IMG/VR virus record: IMGVR_UViG_2579778631_000021
Source of the DNA: a virus
Taxonomy: Duplodnaviria > Heunggongvirae > Uroviricota > Caudoviricetes
Direction: 5' to 3' (one strand)
Length of the DNA: 37,649 bases
The position numbers and the translations under genes are program-made. This document shows positions 1,419-11,509 of the stretch, piece by piece (the first letter of the stretch is position 1; each line of letters starts with the position of its first letter). The notes below the pieces were generated by a model. It was not told the origin of the DNA. It was given only the letters and a program-made list of their open reading frames with translations, and made no database searches.

Positions 1419-2489
1419 TTATTTGATTTCAATTTTGTCCCACTCCCTGCCTCTGTCATCACGATACTGTGATGCCATGGTGTCCGACTTATGCCCGAGA
1501 AGATGTTGAGCAAACTTATCGCTTATCTGCTTCTCATAGAGTCTTGCAGACAAACTGCGCAACTCGTGAAAGGTAGGCGGATCCCCTTCGAAGGAAAGAC
1601 CTGATGCTTTTCGTGCGCGCATAAAATACCTTGATACTGTGCCGGATGAAAGCGGTTCACGACGAGTAGATGCAATTATGGTTTCTCCGCCAAGAATCTC
1701 TTTGCATTTATCAAGTGTTTCCTTCATTGATATCCCAAGAGCATCAACATGCAATGTTGTTGGGATGGCAATTTTTACGCCGGTTTTGCTTTGCTCGACA
1801 TAAAGATAGCCATCTACGATATCAGACCACTTCATTTCGCATAAATCACCAACTCGCTGCCCGGTAACAACAGCCAGTTCCATTGCAAGTCTAAGCCAAC
1901 ATGGTGATGATTCTGCTGCTTGATAAATTTTCAGGTATTCGTCAGCCGTAAGTCTTGATCTCCTTACCTCTGATTTTGCTGCGCGAGTGGCAGCGACCGG
2001 GTTTGTTGTTATATGGCCTTCAGCTATTGCCTCTCGGAATGCATCGCTCAGTGTTGATCTGATTAACTTGGCTGACGCCGCCTTGCCCTCGTCTATGTAT
2101 CCATTGAGCATTGCCGCAATTTCTTTTGTGGTGATGTCTTCAAGTGGAGCATCAGGCAGACCCCTCCTTATTGCTTTAATTTTGCTCATGTAATTTATGA
2201 GTGTCTTCTGCTTGATTCCTCTGCTGGCGAGGATTTTTTCGTAGCGATCAAGCCATGAATGTAACGTAACAGAATTATCACTGTTGATTCTCGCTGTCAG
2301 AGGCTTGTGTTTGTGTCCTGAAAATAACTCAATGTTGGCCTGTATAGCTTCAGTGATTGCGATTCGCCTGTCTCGGCCTAATCCAAACTCTTTACCCGTC
2401 CTTGGGTCCCTGTAGCAGTAATATCCATTGTTTCTTATATAAAGGTTAGGGGGTAAATCCCGGCGCTCATGACTTCGCCTTCTTCCCAT
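1419..2489 (-). CDS. int: Tyrosine integrase, lambda Int type
   Basis: 356-aa ORF; N-terminal arm-binding region and C-terminal catalytic motifs (HELRSL...LGH...Y); sequence recalled as essentially lambda Int; adjacent to attL. Confidence 0.95.
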   Translation of the reverse strand: MGRRRSHERRDLPPNLYIRNNGYYCYRDPRTGKEFGLGRDRRIAITEAIQANIELFSGHKHKPLTARINSDNSVTLHSWLDRYEKILASRGIKQKTLINYMSKIKAIRRGLPDAPLEDITTKEIAAMLNGYIDEGKAASAKLIRSTLSDAFREAIAEGHITTNPVAATRAAKSEVRRSRLTADEYLKIYQAAESSPCWLRLAMELAVVTGQRVGDLCEMKWSDIVDGYLYVEQSKTGVKIAIPTTLHVDALGISMKETLDKCKEILGGETIIASTRREPLSSGTVSRYFMRARKASGLSFEGDPPTFHELRSLSARLYEKQISDKFAQHLLGHKSDTMASQYRDDRGREWDKIEIK

Positions 2490-2685
2490 TTCTGATCCTC
2501 TTCAAAAGGCTACCTGTTACTGGTCGATTTAAGTCAACCTTTACCGCTGATTCGTGGAACAGATACTCTCTTCCATCCTTAACCGGAGGAGGGAATATCC
2601 TGCATTCGCGCACCCATCGACGAACTGTTTCAAGGCTTCTTGGGCGCCGCTGGCGTGCGTTCCACTCCTGAAGTGTTAAGTACAT
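2467..2685 (-). CDS. xis: Excisionase Xis
   Basis: 72-aa ORF MYLTLQEWNARQRRPRSLETVRRW... overlapping int start, as in lambda. Confidence 0.9.
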   Translation of the reverse strand: MYLTLQEWNARQRRPRSLETVRRWVRECRIFPPPVKDGREYLFHESAVKVDLNRPVTGSLLKRIRNGKKAKS

Positions 2686-2712
2686 CGCAAAGTCTCCGCA
2701 ATTACACGCAAG

Positions 2713-2732
2713 AAAAAACCGCCATCAGGCGG
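2713..2732 (-). terminator. Hairpin CCGCC-ATCA-GGCGG with T-run on minus strand, between small ORF and xis
   Basis: 5-bp GC stem, 4-nt loop, followed on minus strand by TTTTTTCT; stop codon of upstream ORF lies in the loop. Confidence 0.4.
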
Positions 2733-2892
2733 CTTGGTGTTCTTTCAGTTCTTCAATTCGAATATTGGTTACGTCTGCATGTGCTATCTGCGCCCATATC
2801 ATCCAGTGGTCATAGCAGTCGTTGATGTTCTCTGCTTCGATAACTCTGTTGAATGGCTCTCCATTCCATTCACCTGTCACCCGGAAGTGCAT
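2725..2892 (-). CDS. Small hypothetical protein (55 aa), lambda orf55-like position
   Basis: ATG with GGAG SD 8 nt upstream; translation MHFRVTGEWNGEPFNRVIEAENINDCYDHWMIWAQIAHADVTNIRIEELKEHQAA; below the 60-aa cutoff of the ORF track. Confidence 0.5.
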   Translation of the reverse strand: MHFRVTGEWNGEPFNRVIEAENINDCYDHWMIWAQIAHADVTNIRIEELKEHQAA

Positions 2893-2904
2893 TTATCATC
2901 TCCA

Positions 2905-2929
2905 TAAAACAAAACTCGCCGTAGCGAGT
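2905..2929 (-). terminator. Hairpin ACTCGC-CGTA-GCGAGT followed by TTTTGTTTT on minus strand
   Basis: Perfect 6-bp stem, 4-nt loop, T-rich tract abutting the SD of the 55-aa ORF. Confidence 0.45.
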
Positions 2930-2964
2930 TCAGATAAAAGAAATCCCCGCGAATGCGAGGATTG

Positions 2965-3249
2965 TTATTCATTGCCGATATTCACTTTTATCGCGAACAC
3001 CTTTACCGGTTTATCACCGAAGTGCGGATGTGTGATTGTCTTGATTTCATATCCGTCATACGGGACGTCAATTCTTCGGCTGGAATCGTCGCGCTTCGGA
3101 TATCCCTTCGTGATAATCAGGCGGTCATACTCCCGGAACATAATTCGCTTATTCCAGTAGTCATTACACAGGCGATACTCTTCCGTTTTCTCTCCGCGAA
3201 TCATGGCATCGAAGTATTCACCTTTGACAGCAAGTTGCAGGTTAGCCAT
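2965..3249 (-). CDS. Hypothetical protein, possible ASCH/PUA-like domain
   Basis: Start ATG at 3249 (MANLQLAVKGEYFDAMIRGEKTEEYR) with GGAGG SD; G-x-K-x-x-E-x-R motif reminiscent of ASCH; family assignment is a guess. Confidence 0.4.
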   Translation of the reverse strand: MANLQLAVKGEYFDAMIRGEKTEEYRLCNDYWNKRIMFREYDRLIITKGYPKRDDSSRRIDVPYDGYEIKTITHPHFGDKPVKVFAIKVNIGNE

Positions 3250-3509
3250 TACCGCACCTCCAGTCTCCATACCGCCTGACCAATCCGGCTGGCATAGGTA
3301 TCTTTGGATACTGCTCCGTCTTTAGCCAGCTCCATAAGAATTTTGCGCAAATCTGCCGAACGCCATTCTTCATCAGGAAATTCCTTCTCCATTGCCAACC
3401 GCAGATTCCAGGTTGCTATCGTGAATGGATATTCCCCGCCGAGAGCTTTCTCTTGCAGGGCAGCACGGGAACGCATCACCTGCAAAACCTTCTCTTTTAC
3501 ATCCATCAT
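3249..3509 (-). CDS. Hypothetical phage protein (86 aa)
   Basis: Start MMDVKEKVLQ with GGAGG SD; start overlaps stop of upstream gene (ATGA). Confidence 0.4.
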   Translation of the reverse strand: MMDVKEKVLQVMRSRAALQEKALGGEYPFTIATWNLRLAMEKEFPDEEWRSADLRKILMELAKDGAVSKDTYASRIGQAVWRLEVR

Positions 3510-5306: not shown

Positions 5307-5603
5307 TCAGTCATTACTGATAGCGCCATAGCGTGAGCGGTAATTACGCAGGCGCGGGTCGATATATTCAGGGAAGTGGGTATATGTGGCTTTGCGGAAT
5401 GGTCGGATTGATGTCTGGTAAATTCGCTCGCGTTCTTCTTTCTCTGCAAGCCATATACAATGGCGAAATTCCTTTTCCTCTTTCGTTTCCTGCGGTAGCG
5501 ACATTATCAGGTCGTAGTTTTTCCTGAATTTATCCAGCACCTCCGATACGGAATTGCCGGAACAGCGGCGCGCGTCATCCGCACCATACAAAGGCGCTGG
5601 CAT
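5307..5603 (-). CDS. Hypothetical phage protein (98 aa)
   Basis: ATG with GGAG SD; basic C-terminus. Confidence 0.45.
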
Positions 5604-5619
5604 GTTTTTCTCCGGTTGA

Positions 5620-6168
5620 TTATTTAGCTAACTTTTTCCAGATCGCTGAAACGTATTTGGCTTGGTGGATGGCATCATCAAGCGCGTTGTGGCGAGTTCC
5701 TTTGAATGGCATATCTCGCTTAGGGTCGAATCCTATTACCTTTCCAAGCTCGACGATTGTTCTTACGTCGCGGTCATTCCACCACTGCCACGGAACTGGC
5801 TGCCCTGTCAGCGAATAACTGTTGCGGAGAATAACGCAGTCAAATGATGCTCCATTCCCCAAAACCTGAACGAATTTGTGGTTAGCGTTCTTTATGATGA
5901 ATTCAGATAACCATGAAAGAGCCGTTGAAAGCTCTTGAGTGTTGCTGGTTAGCGATTTTCTGGCTTCTTCACTCTGTTCCATCCACCATAAAATCGTTGA
6001 AGCGTCAGGACGCGCCCGATATCGCATTGATGACTCAAGCGAGATATTTACCGAGAACTCTTCTCCTGTTTCTCCGGTATTCGGGTCAAAGAATACTGCC
6101 CCAATAGAAATAACTGGCGCGTATGGCCCGTTGCCCATTGTTTCAAGGTCAACCATTAAGTGATTCAT
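5620..6168 (-). CDS. DEDDh-type 3'-5' exonuclease (DnaQ-like fold)
   Basis: N-terminal MVDLETMG (Exo I motif), internal and C-terminal acidic/His motifs (HNALDDA). Confidence 0.7.
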   Translation of the reverse strand: MNHLMVDLETMGNGPYAPVISIGAVFFDPNTGETGEEFSVNISLESSMRYRARPDASTILWWMEQSEEARKSLTSNTQELSTALSWLSEFIIKNANHKFVQVLGNGASFDCVILRNSYSLTGQPVPWQWWNDRDVRTIVELGKVIGFDPKRDMPFKGTRHNALDDAIHQAKYVSAIWKKLAK

Positions 6169-6176
6169 GTAAGTCC

Positions 6177-6692
6177 TTAAATTGCGTGAATAGCGTGACG
6201 AGGGAAGGGGAGAGTTACTGGTGCAAAGGGGATTTCATCGTCGAAGTTCATAGGTGGTTCGCCGTAATTCCCATGCTGCTGAGATTGCTGTCTTTGTTGC
6301 TGGCCGTTATTTCGCTGAGGTGAAGACTGTTCATTGCTTCCTTGCTTGCCACCAAGCATTTGCATGGCTCCACCAACGCCCACGATAACTTCTGTAGTGA
6401 ACCGATCCTGTCCGCTTTGATCCTGCCATTTTCTTGTCCGCAATTTGCCTTCAAGATAAACCTCTGAGCCTTTTCGCAGATATTCGCTGGCAATTTCTGC
6501 CAGTTTCCCGCTCATTACCACACGGTGCCACTCCGTCTGCTCCTTTTGCTCTCCAGTTTGCTTATCACGCCATTGTTCTGACGTAGCAACTGTAAGGTTT
6601 GCAAATGCCGTTCCTGATGGTGAATATCTGATTTCTGGATCATGCCCAAGGCGACCAATAATGATCACCTTATTTACGCCTCTGCTTGCCAT
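6177..6692 (-). CDS. ssb: Single-stranded DNA-binding protein
   Basis: OB-fold N-terminus [23 protein letters not shown]..., Gly/Gln-rich linker, acidic DDEIPF tail motif. Confidence 0.9.
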
Positions 6693-7400
6693 TTATGCCG
6701 CCTGTTTTAGCTCGTTAACTCTGATGTTCATTACCTGAACGCATTTAGCCTGCGCCTCCTCGTTTCCAGCCATTAATTGCCAGTCACGCTGATAACGCTC
6801 GATGAGTTTTTTCTTGTCAGTTTCTGTTGACGCATAATCGCTGAAGTCTTTCAGGATTTGTTCGCAGTCAACCGATGGAGATTTCTGGTTGGTATTTTCT
6901 GGTGATGGTTTGTTATCTGATGCTGGGATTGCCCATCCCGGCAGTGATGGAGGGAGCCAGTAAAATCCTGTTCCATCCTTCAGTTTTGCCCTGTGCCACC
7001 CCTGCTTTTTATCGAGAGATGTTTGTGCGAAACCTTCCTCAAGGTTATACAGATACCGACCGATTCCCCACTGAACGGCAGCGCGCTTCATTGCACCGGA
7101 ACGACCACCTTTGACGGCTTCTACCTGCGTGTTTTCAGCAGCATCCCATTTGGTTACCCATTCGGAATCAATCTTTATTGATATGCCGCATTCAACGCCG
7201 CCGTTGTTGGGAATATCGCGGTATTCATTGCGCCATCCTGCTTTGCCGCAAACATCGTCCAGACGTTTCATGATTGCCCGGTTCGTGACATAAGCCAGCA
7301 CCATAGCCCACACTTTGCCATCGCGTGTTTTACCGCTTTGCTGTATTCGCCATTCGATATCTTCAGGGCTGAATGGCTCATCGAATTTATTCAAATCCAT
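6693..7400 (-). CDS. Rad52-like single-strand annealing protein (Sak-type recombinase)
   Basis: 235-aa ORF directly upstream of ssb; recalled resemblance to phage Rad52/22 family annealases; GAGG SD. Confidence 0.6.
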   Translation of the reverse strand: MDLNKFDEPFSPEDIEWRIQQSGKTRDGKVWAMVLAYVTNRAIMKRLDDVCGKAGWRNEYRDIPNNGGVECGISIKIDSEWVTKWDAAENTQVEAVKGGRSGAMKRAAVQWGIGRYLYNLEEGFAQTSLDKKQGWHRAKLKDGTGFYWLPPSLPGWAIPASDNKPSPENTNQKSPSVDCEQILKDFSDYASTETDKKKLIERYQRDWQLMAGNEEAQAKCVQVMNIRVNELKQAA

Positions 7401-7487
7401 AATTCACCTCAGAATGGACACGGCCCAAGGAAATAACGCTGATTTAATACTTCAGTCTTTGCCGCATTTAAAAATACGCGAACACCT

Positions 7488-7658
7488 TCACGATCTCCCT
7501 TCTGGCGATACATTAACGCCTGCTGCGTGTACATGCGTCTCTGTAACTTGCTCTCCTTCACTGTGGTTGCAAGTGACATGAATATCTCCTTCGTTACCGA
7601 TTAATTCTTTCATCTGACGAATGAATTCTTCGTCTGACCAGTTATCTGTAAAACTCAT
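7488..7658 (-). CDS. Small hypothetical protein (56 aa), acidic
   Basis: Start MSFTDNWSDEEF; ATG overlaps stop of upstream small ORF (ATGA). Confidence 0.35.
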   Translation of the reverse strand: MSFTDNWSDEEFIRQMKELIGNEGDIHVTCNHSEGEQVTETHVHAAGVNVSPEGRS

Positions 7659-7807
7659 TTCCTGCGATACCACGGAAGGTTGATAGCTGATTTCATCGCT
7701 TTATTTGCTTCAAGCCACATTTTTGAATCACCAATAAATCTGGCTATTACTGCTTTGTTCTGTGCAGCTCGAAGCATCTGGTGATTAATGGCTATTTCAT
7801 TGCGCAT
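7655..7807 (-). CDS. Small hypothetical protein (50 aa)
   Basis: MRNEIAINHQMLRAAQNKAVIARFIGDSKMWLEANKAMKSAINLPWYRRK; GAGG SD; below ORF-track cutoff. Confidence 0.3.
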   Translation of the reverse strand: MRNEIAINHQMLRAAQNKAVIARFIGDSKMWLEANKAMKSAINLPWYRRK

Positions 7808-7923
7808 AATAAGACCTCAACTCTTTTCCATCCGTCACGTAATTTACGGGTGATTCGTTCAAGTAAAGATTCATTTAGTTGGAAGGCACCCATGCGAGCG
7901 CCTCCCGCGATTGCGTAAATCAT
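7792..7923 (-). CDS. Small hypothetical protein (43 aa)
   Basis: MIYAIAGGARMGAFQLNESLLERITRKLRDGWKRVEVLLCAMK; AAGGAA SD; below ORF-track cutoff. Confidence 0.25.
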   Translation of the reverse strand: MIYAIAGGARMGAFQLNESLLERITRKLRDGWKRVEVLLCAMK

Positions 7924-7947: not shown

Positions 7948-8916
7948 TTAGTAGGTTATTTTTGTTGCGAATACTTCGCCTTTTACGATGGCTGTTATGA
8001 TATTTTTAGCAACATCTTCTGATGCACCAACCTTGATAAGGTCAGCAAGTATTTTGTTATTCACTTCTTTCCGGTGAGCTTTATCCTTTGCTCTACGCTC
8101 TTCTTCGTCCTTGATTCTTTTTTCTTCTGCTATTCTGGCTTGCTCTTTTGCTTCAGCCTCGCGACGGATTCGTTCAGCCTCCTCCTGTGCTTTTCTGCGT
8201 TCTGCTTCAATTGCTGCCTGCTTTTCTCTTTCAGCTCGTTCTGCTGCCTCTTTTGCTTCGCGCTGTGCTCGTTGCTCGGCTTCAATGCGTTCACGCTCTG
8301 CACGTTCTGCTGCGGCCTTAGCTTCTGCTTCTCGCCTTGCTGCTGCTTCAATTTCGGCTTTTGCCTTTGCTTCGGCTTCTGCTCTGGCTTTCTCTTCAGC
8401 TTCTCTTTTTAAGCGTTCTTCATGCTCTCGCTTTTCCTGCTCCGCTTTGAGTCTTGCCTCTTCTCTTTGGCGGTCAAATTCGCGATCCATCAAAATAGCT
8501 ATTTCATGGTCAGACTCAATTTGCTTTGCGAGAGCTTCAGCTTCTGCCTTAGCTTCTTCTTCGGCTTTAATCCGCGCCTGTTCTTCCTCATAATCAGTAA
8601 GAGGCTGGCGCGCCTTGGCTTTCAGCTCATCAAGGCGATCGCGCACTGTCTTGCGGTTGGCATCAATTAGCTTTGGAATTTCCTTCAGTTCAGCAACAAG
8701 GTCTTTGCCAAGACCATCGAGATATGTTTTCGTCTGCGCAACTTTATACGCCAGAGAAGCGATCTCCTTTCTGCCCTTTGCCGTTGTGATATCAGGCACA
8801 AAGGACATAACTTCACGTTCAACCTTTTGAAGGATTTCTTCAATCTGGTCGGCAGACTGAAATACAGTCATTGCATTTGCTTTTTCAATAACAACTAAAT
8901 CTGTTACTTCACTCAT
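7948..8916 (-). CDS. Phage protein with long E/A/K/R-rich coiled-coil low-complexity region
   Basis: 322-aa ORF, strong GGAGGA SD; residues about 110-290 are EAKR repeats; function unknown. Confidence 0.5.
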   Translation of the reverse strand: MSEVTDLVVIEKANAMTVFQSADQIEEILQKVEREVMSFVPDITTAKGRKEIASLAYKVAQTKTYLDGLGKDLVAELKEIPKLIDANRKTVRDRLDELKAKARQPLTDYEEEQARIKAEEEAKAEAEALAKQIESDHEIAILMDREFDRQREEARLKAEQEKREHEERLKREAEEKARAEAEAKAKAEIEAAARREAEAKAAAERAERERIEAEQRAQREAKEAAERAEREKQAAIEAERRKAQEEAERIRREAEAKEQARIAEEKRIKDEEERRAKDKAHRKEVNNKILADLIKVGASEDVAKNIITAIVKGEVFATKITY

Positions 8917-8928
8917 ATATCCTCCGTC

Positions 8929-8956
8929 AAAAAATTGCCCTCACACTGGAGGGCAA
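8929..8956 (-). terminator. Rho-independent terminator on minus strand (tL1-like) upstream of recombination genes
   Basis: 8-bp stem TTGCCCTC/GAGGGCAA, 6-nt loop, followed on minus strand by 6-7 T; abuts SD of 322-aa gene. Confidence 0.5.
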
Positions 8957-9168
8957 AGAAGATTTCCAATAATCAGAACAAGTCGGCTCCTGTTTAGTTA
9001 CGAGCGACATTGCTCAGTGTATTCACTCGTTGGAATGAATACACAGTGCAGTGTTTATTAGTATGCCTGTCTTTTAACCACATCAGGCTCGGTGGTTCTC
9101 GTGTACCCCTACAGCGAGAAATCGGATAAACTCTATTCACCCCTACAGAGAGCAAAAGAGAAACGCCG

Positions 9169-9750
9169 ATGAACAACTCATGGTGGCAGGAACTAATGCA
9201 TTTTTTCCTGCAAGGAATGACACTTAAACAGTTGATTCATATGCTAATCATCCTAATCATATTGATTATTGTTATGCCTGTAAGCGTAAAAGAATGGATA
9301 AACCTGCATAATCCAGAAATCCTTCCTCATTACTGGATGTATTACATCCTGTTGTTTTGCGTTAGCTATGTGCTTAACGGCGTTGTTAATTCCGCTTATC
9401 ACGCTGTGACTGAAAGAATTGAGATATTCGCTGCTCAGAAGCGCAAATCTAAAGAAGAGAAATACGTGCAAGATTTGTTTGATTCGTTAACTCTTGGAGA
9501 AAGAGCGTATTTGGCATTCGCTGTAGCCGCTAATAACCAGCTAAAGACAGAAAAGGGAAGCCCTGAAGCAATCTCATTGCTCGAAAAAGGGCTTCTTATT
9601 CGGGTACCTTCTGCTACTGGATATCCTGAAATCGACCGTTTTGTTATCCCGGAACGCTATAGAAATGAGTGCTACATTAGGTTTGCTGGGAAGAAAGACA
9701 GTCTTATGGATGAACTTATCGCTCAGGATAAGCATGGCAAAAACAAGTAA
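9169..9750 (+). CDS. SieB-like superinfection exclusion membrane protein
   Basis: 193-aa ORF on opposite strand to pL operon, AT-rich, N-terminal hydrophobic segments; position and size as for lambdoid sieB; recalled similarity only. Confidence 0.45.
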   Translation: MNNSWWQELMHFFLQGMTLKQLIHMLIILIILIIVMPVSVKEWINLHNPEILPHYWMYYILLFCVSYVLNGVVNSAYHAVTERIEIFAAQKRKSKEEKYVQDLFDSLTLGERAYLAFAVAANNQLKTEKGSPEAISLLEKGLLIRVPSATGYPEIDRFVIPERYRNECYIRFAGKKDSLMDELIAQDKHGKNK

Positions 9751-9766
9751 TTAGCAAATTAATTTA

Positions 9767-10039
9767 TCATCTCGCCGTCAGTTGTTTTGATTTCCGGTAG
9801 CCTGCCGCGTAAATGGCTACGTTTGGCAGGCAAATACTTCCACTGCATTCATCTGCCTTCTTGCAGCGAAGGCTTCCGAGTGATGCTGCTTTGTCTGCTC
9901 TGACGCAACCAGAGAGCTTTAGCGCAATTTTTCGCGCCAGTCGCTGTTCTTGCATTGCCTGCTCACGTTGAGCCTGTCTGCGTGCTCTGCGGCGATTTCT
10001 GGCGTTATCGTCAGCCAGATATGTAATGACTACTGCCAT
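9767..10039 (-). CDS. N-like transcription antiterminator
   Basis: First gene downstream of pL and nutL; arginine-rich motif NARNRRRARRQAQREQ near N-terminus; GGAGG SD. Confidence 0.6.
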   Translation of the reverse strand: MAVVITYLADDNARNRRRARRQAQREQAMQEQRLARKIALKLSGCVRADKAASLGSLRCKKADECSGSICLPNVAIYAAGYRKSKQLTAR

Positions 10040-10406: not shown

Positions 10407-10775
10407 TTAGTCAGCGAAGGTTAAGACGAGAATTACCTTAATGATGTCTGCTACAACAGACACGGCCATAGATAAACCAAAGACGATCCAAGCCATAGAG
10501 ATGTCTTCACTACCATCGTATAGAGTTCCGTAATCACTGGTGTAAGGCGTAAATGTCGCGCCTTGATACAATAGGTATAAGCTTGATCCATAGAGGATAA
10601 ATGCAGATATCCCTTGTATTGCCATGATCACCAGAATCATGAAACGAGCTGATCTATGCGCCCAAGCCTGGCTTATTTTTTCTGATAGAGATTTCGCAAT
10701 AAAAGCATGCGCTAAGCCGTAAATTGTTGAGATTGCCAACATCCCCAAAAAGCTTGCTATAGCGGTTCCAACCAT
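10407..10775 (-). CDS. Small polytopic membrane protein in rexAB position, co-transcribed with cI
   Basis: ATG at 10775 with AAGGGG SD (TTG at 10796 overlaps cI stop); about 122 aa with 3-4 hydrophobic helices; lies between cI and OL. Confidence 0.6.
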   Translation of the reverse strand: MVGTAIASFLGMLAISTIYGLAHAFIAKSLSEKISQAWAHRSARFMILVIMAIQGISAFILYGSSLYLLYQGATFTPYTSDYGTLYDGSEDISMAWIVFGLSMAVSVVADIIKVILVLTFAD

Positions 10776-10792
10776 AATCGCCCCTTGCGTGA

Positions 10793-11509
10793 TCAAACCA
10801 GCCTTAGTTTTGTCTCAATTGCAACGCCTATAATCTTGCAGTTTCCATTGATTGGCACGAGAGGCCATGCAGGATTAAGTCCCTTGAGGTATTTATTTCC
10901 GCCGTCGATTATCAGCTTCTTGAATGTTGCTTCGTTAGAGTCAGAAAGTTTTGCTATGACCAAGCTGCCGTTGATCGCCTCCCTTCCGGTATCGAAAAGA
11001 ACGAATGTTCCCTCTGGAATGCTTAACCCAACCGGTGCCGTCATTGAATCACCTTCCACTTTAAGCCAGAACGCATTACCTTGAATATGCGCGTCAGACT
11101 CAAGCCAAACATCTATGTCTTTAATGGTGTATGGTTCGCATGCTTCACACCACGAGCCAGCCTGGATACTGCTTAACACCGGATACCTCTTTCCTGCTCT
11201 GTATTCCCCTGCATACCTTACGTTGGCATCGCTCTTAAGGCTTTCTGCCTGTTCTGCAACCTTGGCAGCAATTGACTGGCTAAAATCAGCAATTGAGACT
11301 TGCAACAATCGTGCAAAACCAGATGCAACCTCAACGTTTAGCGCGTTTCTGCCATTAAGATAATGCCCTACCGCTCCTTGGGTGATACCCAGTTCATCAG
11401 CGATTGAGTATTGGGTTATTCCCAATTCTTTCTTTTTTGACTCATACAAAGCCTTAAGACGCTTAGCGTCTTCGAGCTGTTCTGTCGTCAGTGATTTTTT
11501 ATTTTCCAT
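10793..11509 (-). CDS. cI: CI repressor (HTH N-terminus, S24 LexA-like autocleavage C-terminus)
   Basis: 238 aa; N-terminus MENKKSLTTEQLEDAKRLKALYESKKKELGITQ resembles lambda cI; C-terminal GDSM and FKKL catalytic Ser/Lys motifs. Confidence 0.9.
   Translation of the reverse strand: MENKKSLTTEQLEDAKRLKALYESKKKELGITQYSIADELGITQGAVGHYLNGRNALNVEVASGFARLLQVSIADFSQSIAAKVAEQAESLKSDANVRYAGEYRAGKRYPVLSSIQAGSWCEACEPYTIKDIDVWLESDAHIQGNAFWLKVEGDSMTAPVGLSIPEGTFVLFDTGREAINGSLVIAKLSDSNEATFKKLIIDGGNKYLKGLNPAWPLVPINGNCKIIGVAIETKLRLV

Follow-up and report, generated by a model that had tools for sequence, protein, structure and literature searches.

The virus record IMGVR_UViG_2579778631_000021 of IMG/VR, a stretch of 37,649 nucleotides that is called the window below, carries a lambdoid prophage integrated beside a host lipoprotein gene. 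On its minus strand, at 7948..8916, lies an open reading frame (ORF) of 322 amino acids plus a stop codon, with an ATG start. We conclude that this ORF, part of the early-left operon, is a functional gene whose protein is under purifying selection, and that in temperate phages of gamma-, beta- and alpha-proteobacteria the gene adjoins an annealing recombination module, mostly directly upstream of it and whatever the family to which the annealing protein belongs. The product is soluble, elongated and all-helical, and has three parts: an N-terminal domain (N-domain), a tract of variable length rich in E, A, K and R, and a C-terminal mini-domain. The sequence of the tract bears the signature of an ER/K single alpha-helix, a spacer of ~21-27 nm, and not that of a canonical coiled coil. 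What would such a protein do beside a recombinase? Our preferred reading is that it is a non-enzymatic adaptor or tether that modulates the end-processing or anti-RecBCD functions of the module, a statement that we rate, taken whole, at a little better than even (about 0.55).

A genuine gene in the early-left operon

A preliminary description of this DNA, made from the letters alone, gave the ORF the same bounds and length, and proposed that finding it interrupted in related phages would argue against a functional gene. Interruptions are rare. Among near-identical full-length copies 78 of 83 (94%) are intact; the disrupted ones are that of CUS-3, in which codon 113 carries an extra T, a metagenomic copy that has lost 1 nucleotide, and three metagenomic copies sharing the same nonsense codon. 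The gene is carried at 95-99% DNA identity by 35 phage records, among them Sf6 (gene 33), IME10 (Orf53), HK544, HF4s, mEp043, mEp213 and mEp234, and the allele was found in 530 of 5,426 complete E. coli genomes (about 10%). The ratio of nonsynonymous to synonymous substitution (dN/dS) over 74 alleles is 0.13, with values of 0.06 for the N-domain, 0.15 for the tract and 0.25 for the C-terminal domain.

Could the ORF nevertheless be spurious or decaying, and merely held open by its low-complexity composition? The CUS-3 insertion and the four metagenomic nonsense or frameshift copies would fit this, as would the existence of PHROGs families for the halves of the gene: families 17211 and 21365 match exactly the two CUS-3 halves, from which it follows that the split form has entered the reference families. 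Against it stand the dN/dS ratio, which is low in the tract too, the 94% of copies that are intact, and the conservation over thousands of clusters of end domains that are not of low complexity. The likelihood of a spurious ORF is next to nil; we regard the idea as already refuted, and the gene as genuine.

In CUS-3 (positions 2501-3470 of the extracted locus) the extra T leaves two ORFs, of 116 and 214 amino acids, in place of the gene, and may be a sequencing error or a true mutation. Rows reading "hypothetical protein (x2)" had raised the possibility of a split gene in phage records as well; this was rejected, the second feature in phage Louie being a small neighboring ORF.

The preliminary description also held that the DNA under the tract is repetitive enough to create long ORFs on the other strand. 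Opposite-strand ORFs of 112 and 160 amino acids are indeed present, but repeats are not their cause. The tract DNA is weakly repetitive (best Tandem Repeats Finder score 48; a period-6 unit that matches at 63%; families of direct repeats that are 61-75% alike), and shuffling the codons of the tract gave a mean open antisense stretch of 183 codons, compared with 171 observed (p = 0.57). The antisense ORFs are thus an effect of base composition, the coding strand of the tract being 72% purine and 9% T.

The upstream signals are largely as first described. A Shine-Dalgarno sequence, GGAGG (8921..8925, minus strand), was found by inspection 4 nucleotides 5' of the ATG, in keeping with the strong ribosome-binding site that had been claimed. 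A consensus scan places a hairpin resembling an intrinsic terminator, followed by TTTTTT, at 8929..8956 on the minus strand; its stem (8956..8935) has 8 bp, of which 5 are G-C pairs, and its T-run ends ~12 nucleotides 5' of the start codon. This terminator had been called tL1-like. The hairpin and the T-run are real, but the name should be tL2A, since the Sf6 record, which is 98% identical in this region, gives that label to the terminator at the same position. The 32-amino-acid ORF that is annotated over this hairpin in phage Louie is probably spurious. A run of ~250 non-coding nucleotides (8917-9168) separates sieB from the terminator, and the Sf6 equivalent is marked as a mosaic "boundary sequence", bsq4.

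As had also been proposed, the gene heads the leftward recombination genes. It lies nearer to the promoter than do cIII, kil and the genes for the Rad52-type annealing protein, for SSB, for an exonuclease and for Abc2, and the downstream block (5307..7923) belongs to the same leftward transcription unit.

Association with annealing modules

Synteny was sampled at 73 diverse prophage loci in one-genome-per-species assemblies, taking the first two downstream ORFs of at least 150 amino acids, which gave 141 proteins. Annealing proteins make up 56 of the 141 (ERF 25, RecT 18, Sak4-type AAA_24 7, Rad52 6), and the others include YqaJ (34), SSB (14) and DUF3799 (6) proteins. Different prophages, moreover, combine the E. 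coli allele with three different annealing-protein modules, which ties the gene to the recombination module as such and not to one partner family.

Individual phages give the same picture. The homolog is followed by Erf and an exonuclease in Pseudomonas phages D3 and JBD44 (annotated in D3; unannotated ORFs of similar size in JBD44), by ERF, a YqaJ exonuclease and NinB in Sinorhizobium phiLM21, and by GamL, an annealing protein (RecT in phi80; "Bet" in the Klebsiella record) and Exo in phi80 and Klebsiella ST101-KPC2phi6.1. In Edwardsiella GF-2 it precedes cIII, with a recombination protein further on, and in Vibrio V039C it lies just downstream of ERF and SSB. There are also four prophages (cluster C28; 7514-8029 in one locus) where the allele is followed by a putatively RecT-like protein of 304 amino acids and a 171-amino-acid protein that, judged by eye, resembles Sipho_Gp157.

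The tract as a predicted single-helix spacer

The core of the tract, residues 146-285 (8062..8481; this and all other parts of the gene are on the minus strand), is 84% E, A, K and R and would be ~21 nm long as a single helix. A wider tract, residues 108-285 (8062-8595), is 79% E, A, K and R and would reach ~27 nm; it corresponds to the ~180-residue stretch noticed from the start. That stretch had been called coiled-coil-like, a view that the periodicity analysis does not bear out. Strictly hydrophobic residues make up 10% of the tract, I, L, V, M, F, W or Y fill a fraction of 0.08-0.12 of the heptad a and d positions whichever register is taken, with none preferred, and hydrophobic power at periods of 3.5-3.6 residues is 0.06-0.07. 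Instead of a heptad core there is the ER/K charge pattern. Opposite-charge pairs at i/i+4 in residues 146-285 number 54, against 25.7 expected from composition-preserving shuffles (z score +7.5), while like-charge pairs at this spacing number 5 against 25.4 (z score -5.2); no effect is seen at i+2 or i+3. In 59 relatives the mean z scores are +4.5 for opposite-charge and -3.6 for like-charge pairs.

ER/K single alpha-helices are stabilized by salt bridges and act as rigid connectors or spacers (PMC5347031, PMC5812594); the KER helix of CAF-1 is a spacer that binds DNA (PMC10335832). With single alpha-helix (SAH) domains such as those of the myosin VI medial tail, Zuotin and CAF-1 KER the tract shares its composition, its excess of i/i+4 salt bridges and its want of a hydrophobic seam. 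The likeness is one of physical type and not of homology; alanine is unusually abundant here (24%), and the monomeric state of the helix is a prediction. Searched against the PDB, the family profile best matches a charged helical region of Zuotin and residues 867-1029 of myosin VI. No characterized SAH domain from a phage turned up in a single literature search.

AlphaFold2 models the 322-amino-acid protein (pLDDT, the predicted local distance difference test score, 82) with helices at 46-171 and 183-295 and a low-confidence break at 172-182, and models a natural 206-amino-acid form (pLDDT 90) with one unbroken helix, 46-179 (134 residues), and small end elements at opposite ends. Tract length in the family ranges from ~35 to ~230 residues, and members of 197 to 410 amino acids occur. 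Comparison of lengths among relatives, a check that the preliminary description had suggested, shows that the in-frame length variants of the E. coli allele (-77 to +11 residues) lie in the tract; natural forms of 197-215 amino acids keep both end domains and have only ~45 residues of tract. On these models we read the 322-amino-acid protein as a dumbbell or rod. A hairpin was set aside because the 206-amino-acid form is modeled as one helix and because natural one-sided deletions occur.

The competing view is that the tract forms a canonical coiled coil, whether by parallel oligomerization or by folding into an antiparallel hairpin that returns the C-terminal mini-domain to the N-domain, like the rod of an SMC or Rad50 arm. 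The break in the full-length model, midway along the helical region, would suit it, as would helix 46-110 of the N-domain, which is amphipathic and could oligomerize, and alanine at 24% yields a weak peak at 3.67 residues if it is counted as hydrophobic. Such a structure is, however, difficult to reconcile with 10% hydrophobic residues and no preferred register, with a charge pattern proper to an isolated helix, with the unbroken 134-residue helix predicted for the 206-amino-acid form, or with natural one-sided deletions of 13-77 residues that have no compensating change. We therefore think a coiled coil improbable and keep to the single-helix spacer.

The end domains and their remote likenesses

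The conserved N-terminal helical domain comprises residues 1 to ~120 (8557..8916), as delimited by cluster matches and alignment. Searched against representatives of 50%-identity clusters, residues 1-117 give 4,939 matches at E <= 0.001, of which 3,420 also reach E <= 1e-10. These matches always fall at the N-terminus of the matched protein, the median length of which is 328 amino acids; the 144 best matches are typically 290-350 amino acids long. (An initial homolog search with the N-domain alone had given only truncated proteins.) R49, G70, K78, D85, R88 and E110 are invariant in the family alignment. Helix 46-110 has its hydrophobic periodicity peak at 3.6 residues (power 1.94) and could mediate oligomerization or the binding of a partner. 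The family is thus large (~4,900 clusters at 50% identity) and it has no Pfam model: at E <= 1 neither the 322-amino-acid protein nor any of 114 family members matches a Pfam family. Homologs of proteobacterial type also occur on contigs labeled as an Actinomycetes metagenome-assembled genome (MAG; the copy there has 100% identity with the E. coli gene), Chryseobacterium sp., a Coriobacteriia MAG and a Woesearchaeota MAG. These four contigs probably reflect contamination or misbinning and not host range.

The C-terminal mini-domain (residues 286-322; 7951..8061) is predicted to form a short helix and a tail. It is recognized by its conservation in the family, where a segment of ~40-45 residues has the consensus D..HR..IN..A...L...G.....AK....AIA.G.I.NV.I.Y and ends in ...I.Y. 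Its profile gives weak matches to helical hairpins of the RuvA domain III/UBA-like type (RuvA chains, E = 0.07-1.5), and whole E. coli RuvA scores 16 bits, compared with a maximum of 10.2 in 2,000 shuffles. Designed helical repeats score higher, so that we take the resemblance as a lead only.

Within the wider tract, residues 131-150 (8467..8526; QIESDHEIAILMDREFDRQR) form a conserved island that is not of low complexity and is kept in phi80 Agt and the closer subfamily. The island is optional, being present at 36 of 74 diverse loci and missing from the natural short forms. It was considered as a marker of members linked to GamL, and rejected because its occurrence is unrelated to GamL.

A possible relative of the N-domain comes from another group of phages. 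Next to erf, recT or sak4, phages of Firmicutes commonly carry a gene of one of four types, DUF1351, DUF2483, Sipho_Gp157 or Mu-Gam (PMC8093625), and the authors of that study suggested analogous functions for these neighbors. We built a DUF1351 profile from 11 sequences in phage records and compared the N-terminal parts with hhalign. The score was 31.9 (P = 1.3e-4; probability 54%) over 47 columns only, aligning residues 70-121 here with residues 52-98 of DUF1351, and the motif K..L.K..K..D..R...P..(F/W/Y)E is common to both. Column-shuffled controls averaged 12.3 (standard deviation 2.0; maximum 16.7), none of 40 reaching the observed score, which lies ~10 standard deviations above their mean; the reversed template scored 18.1. 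The full-length comparison gave P = 0.0022, and comparisons with DUF1351 profiles of one or five sequences were not significant, the signal appearing only with the 11-sequence N-terminal profile. These figures are suggestive of distant homology but are not proof of it. The two families have more in common: DUF1351 (PF07083) proteins are likewise ~290-350 amino acids long, adjoin genes for Erf, RecT/Redbeta or Sak4, and have the motif near residues 50-110. On the other hand, neither the query nor any of the 114 members reaches the Pfam threshold of PF07083, and DUF1351 proteins lack an ER/K tract, have another C-terminal part and, in Firmicutes, stand in varying order relative to the annealing-protein gene.

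Other searches were negative. Foldseek with the 206-amino-acid model returned only family members from BFVD and nothing at E < 6 from the PDB, and a PDB sequence search with the single protein gave low-complexity matches only. An NCBIfam scan yielded nothing usable, and no catalytic motif was found in the 322-amino-acid protein. KfrA-like and SMC-like readings were dropped, there being no domain match to support them.

Names in the databases: TolA and Agt

Many phages already sequenced carry the gene. The 322-amino-acid protein matches phrog_1376 over residues 1-322 (E = 3.5e-110), for which PHROGs lists the function as unknown. Sf6 gene 33 and the other enterobacterial members are 98-99% identical to it in DNA, and Sf6 gene 33, IME10 Orf53 and the "TolA" genes of HK544, mEp043, mEp213 and mEp234 are in substance the same gene as that in the window. 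In Enterobacter, Cronobacter, Citrobacter and Salmonella (76-79% identity) 322 amino acids is the dominant length, as it is the length in phi80. Orf53 of D3 is 55% identical in the N-domain and is likewise placed ahead of recombination genes, there those for Erf and Exo; like other Pseudomonas members, it differs in having a longer tract (~355 amino acids in all).

RefSeq and several phage records name the protein "cell envelope biogenesis protein TolA". The preliminary description had warned that such tracts are often mis-annotated in this way, and this proves to be the case here. The name can be traced to the composition of the tract, which resembles the long helical region rich in alanine, lysine and glutamate of TolA domain II. 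Apart from this likeness and the name itself, which stands in many records, little speaks for a TolA-like protein of the cell envelope. The score against TIGR02794 (tolA_full) is 8.6 bits, far below the cut-off of 59.45. No membrane anchor was found, the top Kyte-Doolittle window of 19 residues scoring 1.03 and lying at residue 293, not at the N-terminus; nor was TolA domain III matched in the Pfam searches of the protein and its 114 relatives. The context, too, is a phage recombination module and not a tol-pal operon. The chance that the protein is TolA-like is very slight, and we regard the name as refuted.

A different label is attached to the ortholog in phi80. The preliminary description gave the function as unknown; that is correct insofar as no function has been defined, but it overlooked this label. 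In the GenBank record of phi80 the gene agt (PHI80_40) is described as "anti-toxin for Gam; Mog (modifier of Gam)", and gamL as "toxic without Mog"; HF4s copies the label. Agt of phi80 (Lula) is, like our protein, 322 amino acids long and is 51% identical to it over the full length (BLASTP, E = 1e-64). It has the same layout in three parts, the DHE..LM..FDR island, the C-terminal ...I.Y, and the place at the head of the leftward recombination genes. The genes that follow differ: agt is directly followed by gamL, recT and exo, whereas in the window cIII, kil and the genes for the Rad52-type annealing protein, SSB and Abc2 follow, and there is no GamL.

A proposed function and its alternatives

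Taken literally, the phi80 annotation would make the protein a GamL-specific antitoxin, which binds and neutralizes a toxic inhibitor of RecBCD/SbcCD encoded just downstream. The identity and equal length of the two proteins support this, and the start of GamL, 8-9 nucleotides past the stop codon of the homolog, could allow translational coupling; Klebsiella ST101-KPC2phi6.1 has the same order. The distribution of GamL does not agree with such a role in general. A Pfam scan of neighboring ORFs found no GamL in the window, where the anti-RecBCD gene is Abc2, and a GamL-like gene follows the homolog in only 9-10 of 78 diverse loci, so that neutralization of Gam cannot be what the family does throughout. 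D3, JBD44 and phiLM21 pass from the homolog straight to Erf and then the exonuclease, and the conserved island is not linked to GamL. We consider a dedicated GamL antitoxin distinctly unlikely.

Our preferred reading is that of an adaptor or tether. Transcription from pL would reach the gene only upon N-dependent read-through of the terminator just before its start codon, and the protein would then be a delayed-early one, made together with the recombination functions. The binding partners of the N-domain and of the C-terminal mini-domain would be DNA ends or phage or host proteins that process them, and the stiff helix would keep these two binding modules ~20-27 nm apart. The net effect would be that the end-processing and anti-RecBCD activities of the phage are modulated and made tolerable, as the phi80 record says of GamL. 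Since the prophage in the window has no GamL, the partner here must be a different one, with Abc2, SSB, the annealing protein, the exonuclease and a host factor as the candidates.

Several points weigh against this reading. Synteny is a correlation and not a mechanism, and the label Agt/Mog rests on GenBank annotation. The protein yielded no partner, no DNA-binding motif and no known fold, and the low-confidence break in the full-length model still allows a folded-back hairpin. A survey of 325 lambdoid recombination modules, published in 2025, does not have this family as a component (PMC12315714). Finally, licensing of Gabija by D3 needs only Exo and Erf, the other 15 genes having no effect when singly expressed (PMC12407980). 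That the gene is probably non-essential for plaque formation is a part of our reading that the same study supports: D3 escape mutants with spontaneous deletions of orf52-66, which take away the homolog orf53, reach normal titer (PMC12407980), so that the family is dispensable for lytic growth in the laboratory.

These last observations would also suit an alternative in which this is an accessory early gene that has nothing to do with recombination, for instance one for anti-defense or host takeover, and that travels with cIII, kil and the recombination genes in a mosaic block. Accessory genes, ral and sieB among them, are known from the early-left interval between N and cIII; phage D3 can do without its homolog, which fails to license Gabija; and the module survey omits the family. 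Mere co-travel, however, sits poorly with an adjacency to annealing genes that extends across phages of alpha-, beta- and gamma-proteobacteria, involves four unrelated annealing families and survives the exchange of mosaic modules. PADLOC, moreover, gave no match other than LmuB (E = 0.032; 10.5 bits), over the low-complexity tract, and the gene lies behind a terminator in an N-dependent transcript, which is not the arrangement of a cassette expressed from the prophage. We thus think it rather unlikely that the gene is a passenger.

Neighboring genes in the window

Downstream of the 322-amino-acid ORF, on the same strand, Pfam scores above the gathering threshold identify cIII (7792-7923), kil (7655-7807), the Rad52-type single-strand annealing protein (6693-7400), SSB (6177-6692) and the anti-RecBCD protein Abc2 (5307-5603). 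The ORF list adds two small minus-strand ORFs between kil and the annealing-protein gene, within the 5307..7923 block. Between SSB and Abc2 lies a gene (5620-6168, minus strand) for an Rv2179c-like 3'-5' exonuclease (Pfam E = 1.3e-71); an exo(ribo)nuclease of this kind is an unusual type of nuclease for a recombination module.

Upstream of the terminator sieB (9169-9750) is on the opposite (plus) strand, and is followed by the early-left genes for an N-type antiterminator (9767-10039) and cI (10793-11509), both on the minus strand. Directly downstream of cI is a minus-strand gene (10407-10796) for a 129-amino-acid protein that has hydrophobic, membrane-like stretches and no Pfam match. It occupies the position of rexAB in lambda and may be an exclusion or defense gene expressed from the prophage. 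In the left part of the window (1419-2685) are genes for an integrase (356 amino acids) and an excisionase (72 amino acids), which we take to resemble the Int/Xis pair of lambda at the lambda attachment site by ybhC. The adjoining host lipoprotein gene, of 427 amino acids, extends past the left end of the window.

Implications

The gene is of moderate interest for three reasons: its database name is wrong, its tract is a patterned single-helix spacer, neither junk nor a coiled coil, and its very large family, which has no Pfam model, is a consistent though overlooked neighbor of phage recombinases. It is also common, being present in ~10% of complete E. coli genomes and in thousands of proteobacterial clusters, and is systematically misnamed TolA. 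Should it turn out to have no role in recombination, the practical gain would be a corrected annotation.

A further-reaching possibility, which we put forward tentatively and think less probable than the adaptor role as such, is that the family is an unrecognized fifth component of annealing recombination systems, beside the annealing protein, exonuclease, SSB and anti-RecBCD function, possibly the proteobacterial counterpart of DUF1351, and that it works as a molecular ruler. A tunable ER/K helix (~5-35 nm) would then separate a module at the N-terminus from a helical-hairpin module at the C-terminus, and the separated modules would tether DNA ends, or position or restrain the proteins that process them. 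If true, this would have effects on genome circularization, on the toxicity of recombination functions and possibly on the efficiency of recombineering. The family would, besides, provide bacterial viruses with a well-populated case of an ER/K single-helix spacer, with natural length variants ready for a test of the ruler.

Annealing-protein modules are the basis of recombineering, and the gene accompanies them, although the recent survey of such modules overlooked it. If it modulates end-processing, or the toxicity of anti-RecBCD proteins, this would explain why some modules are hard to clone, and including the gene could improve portable recombineering systems.

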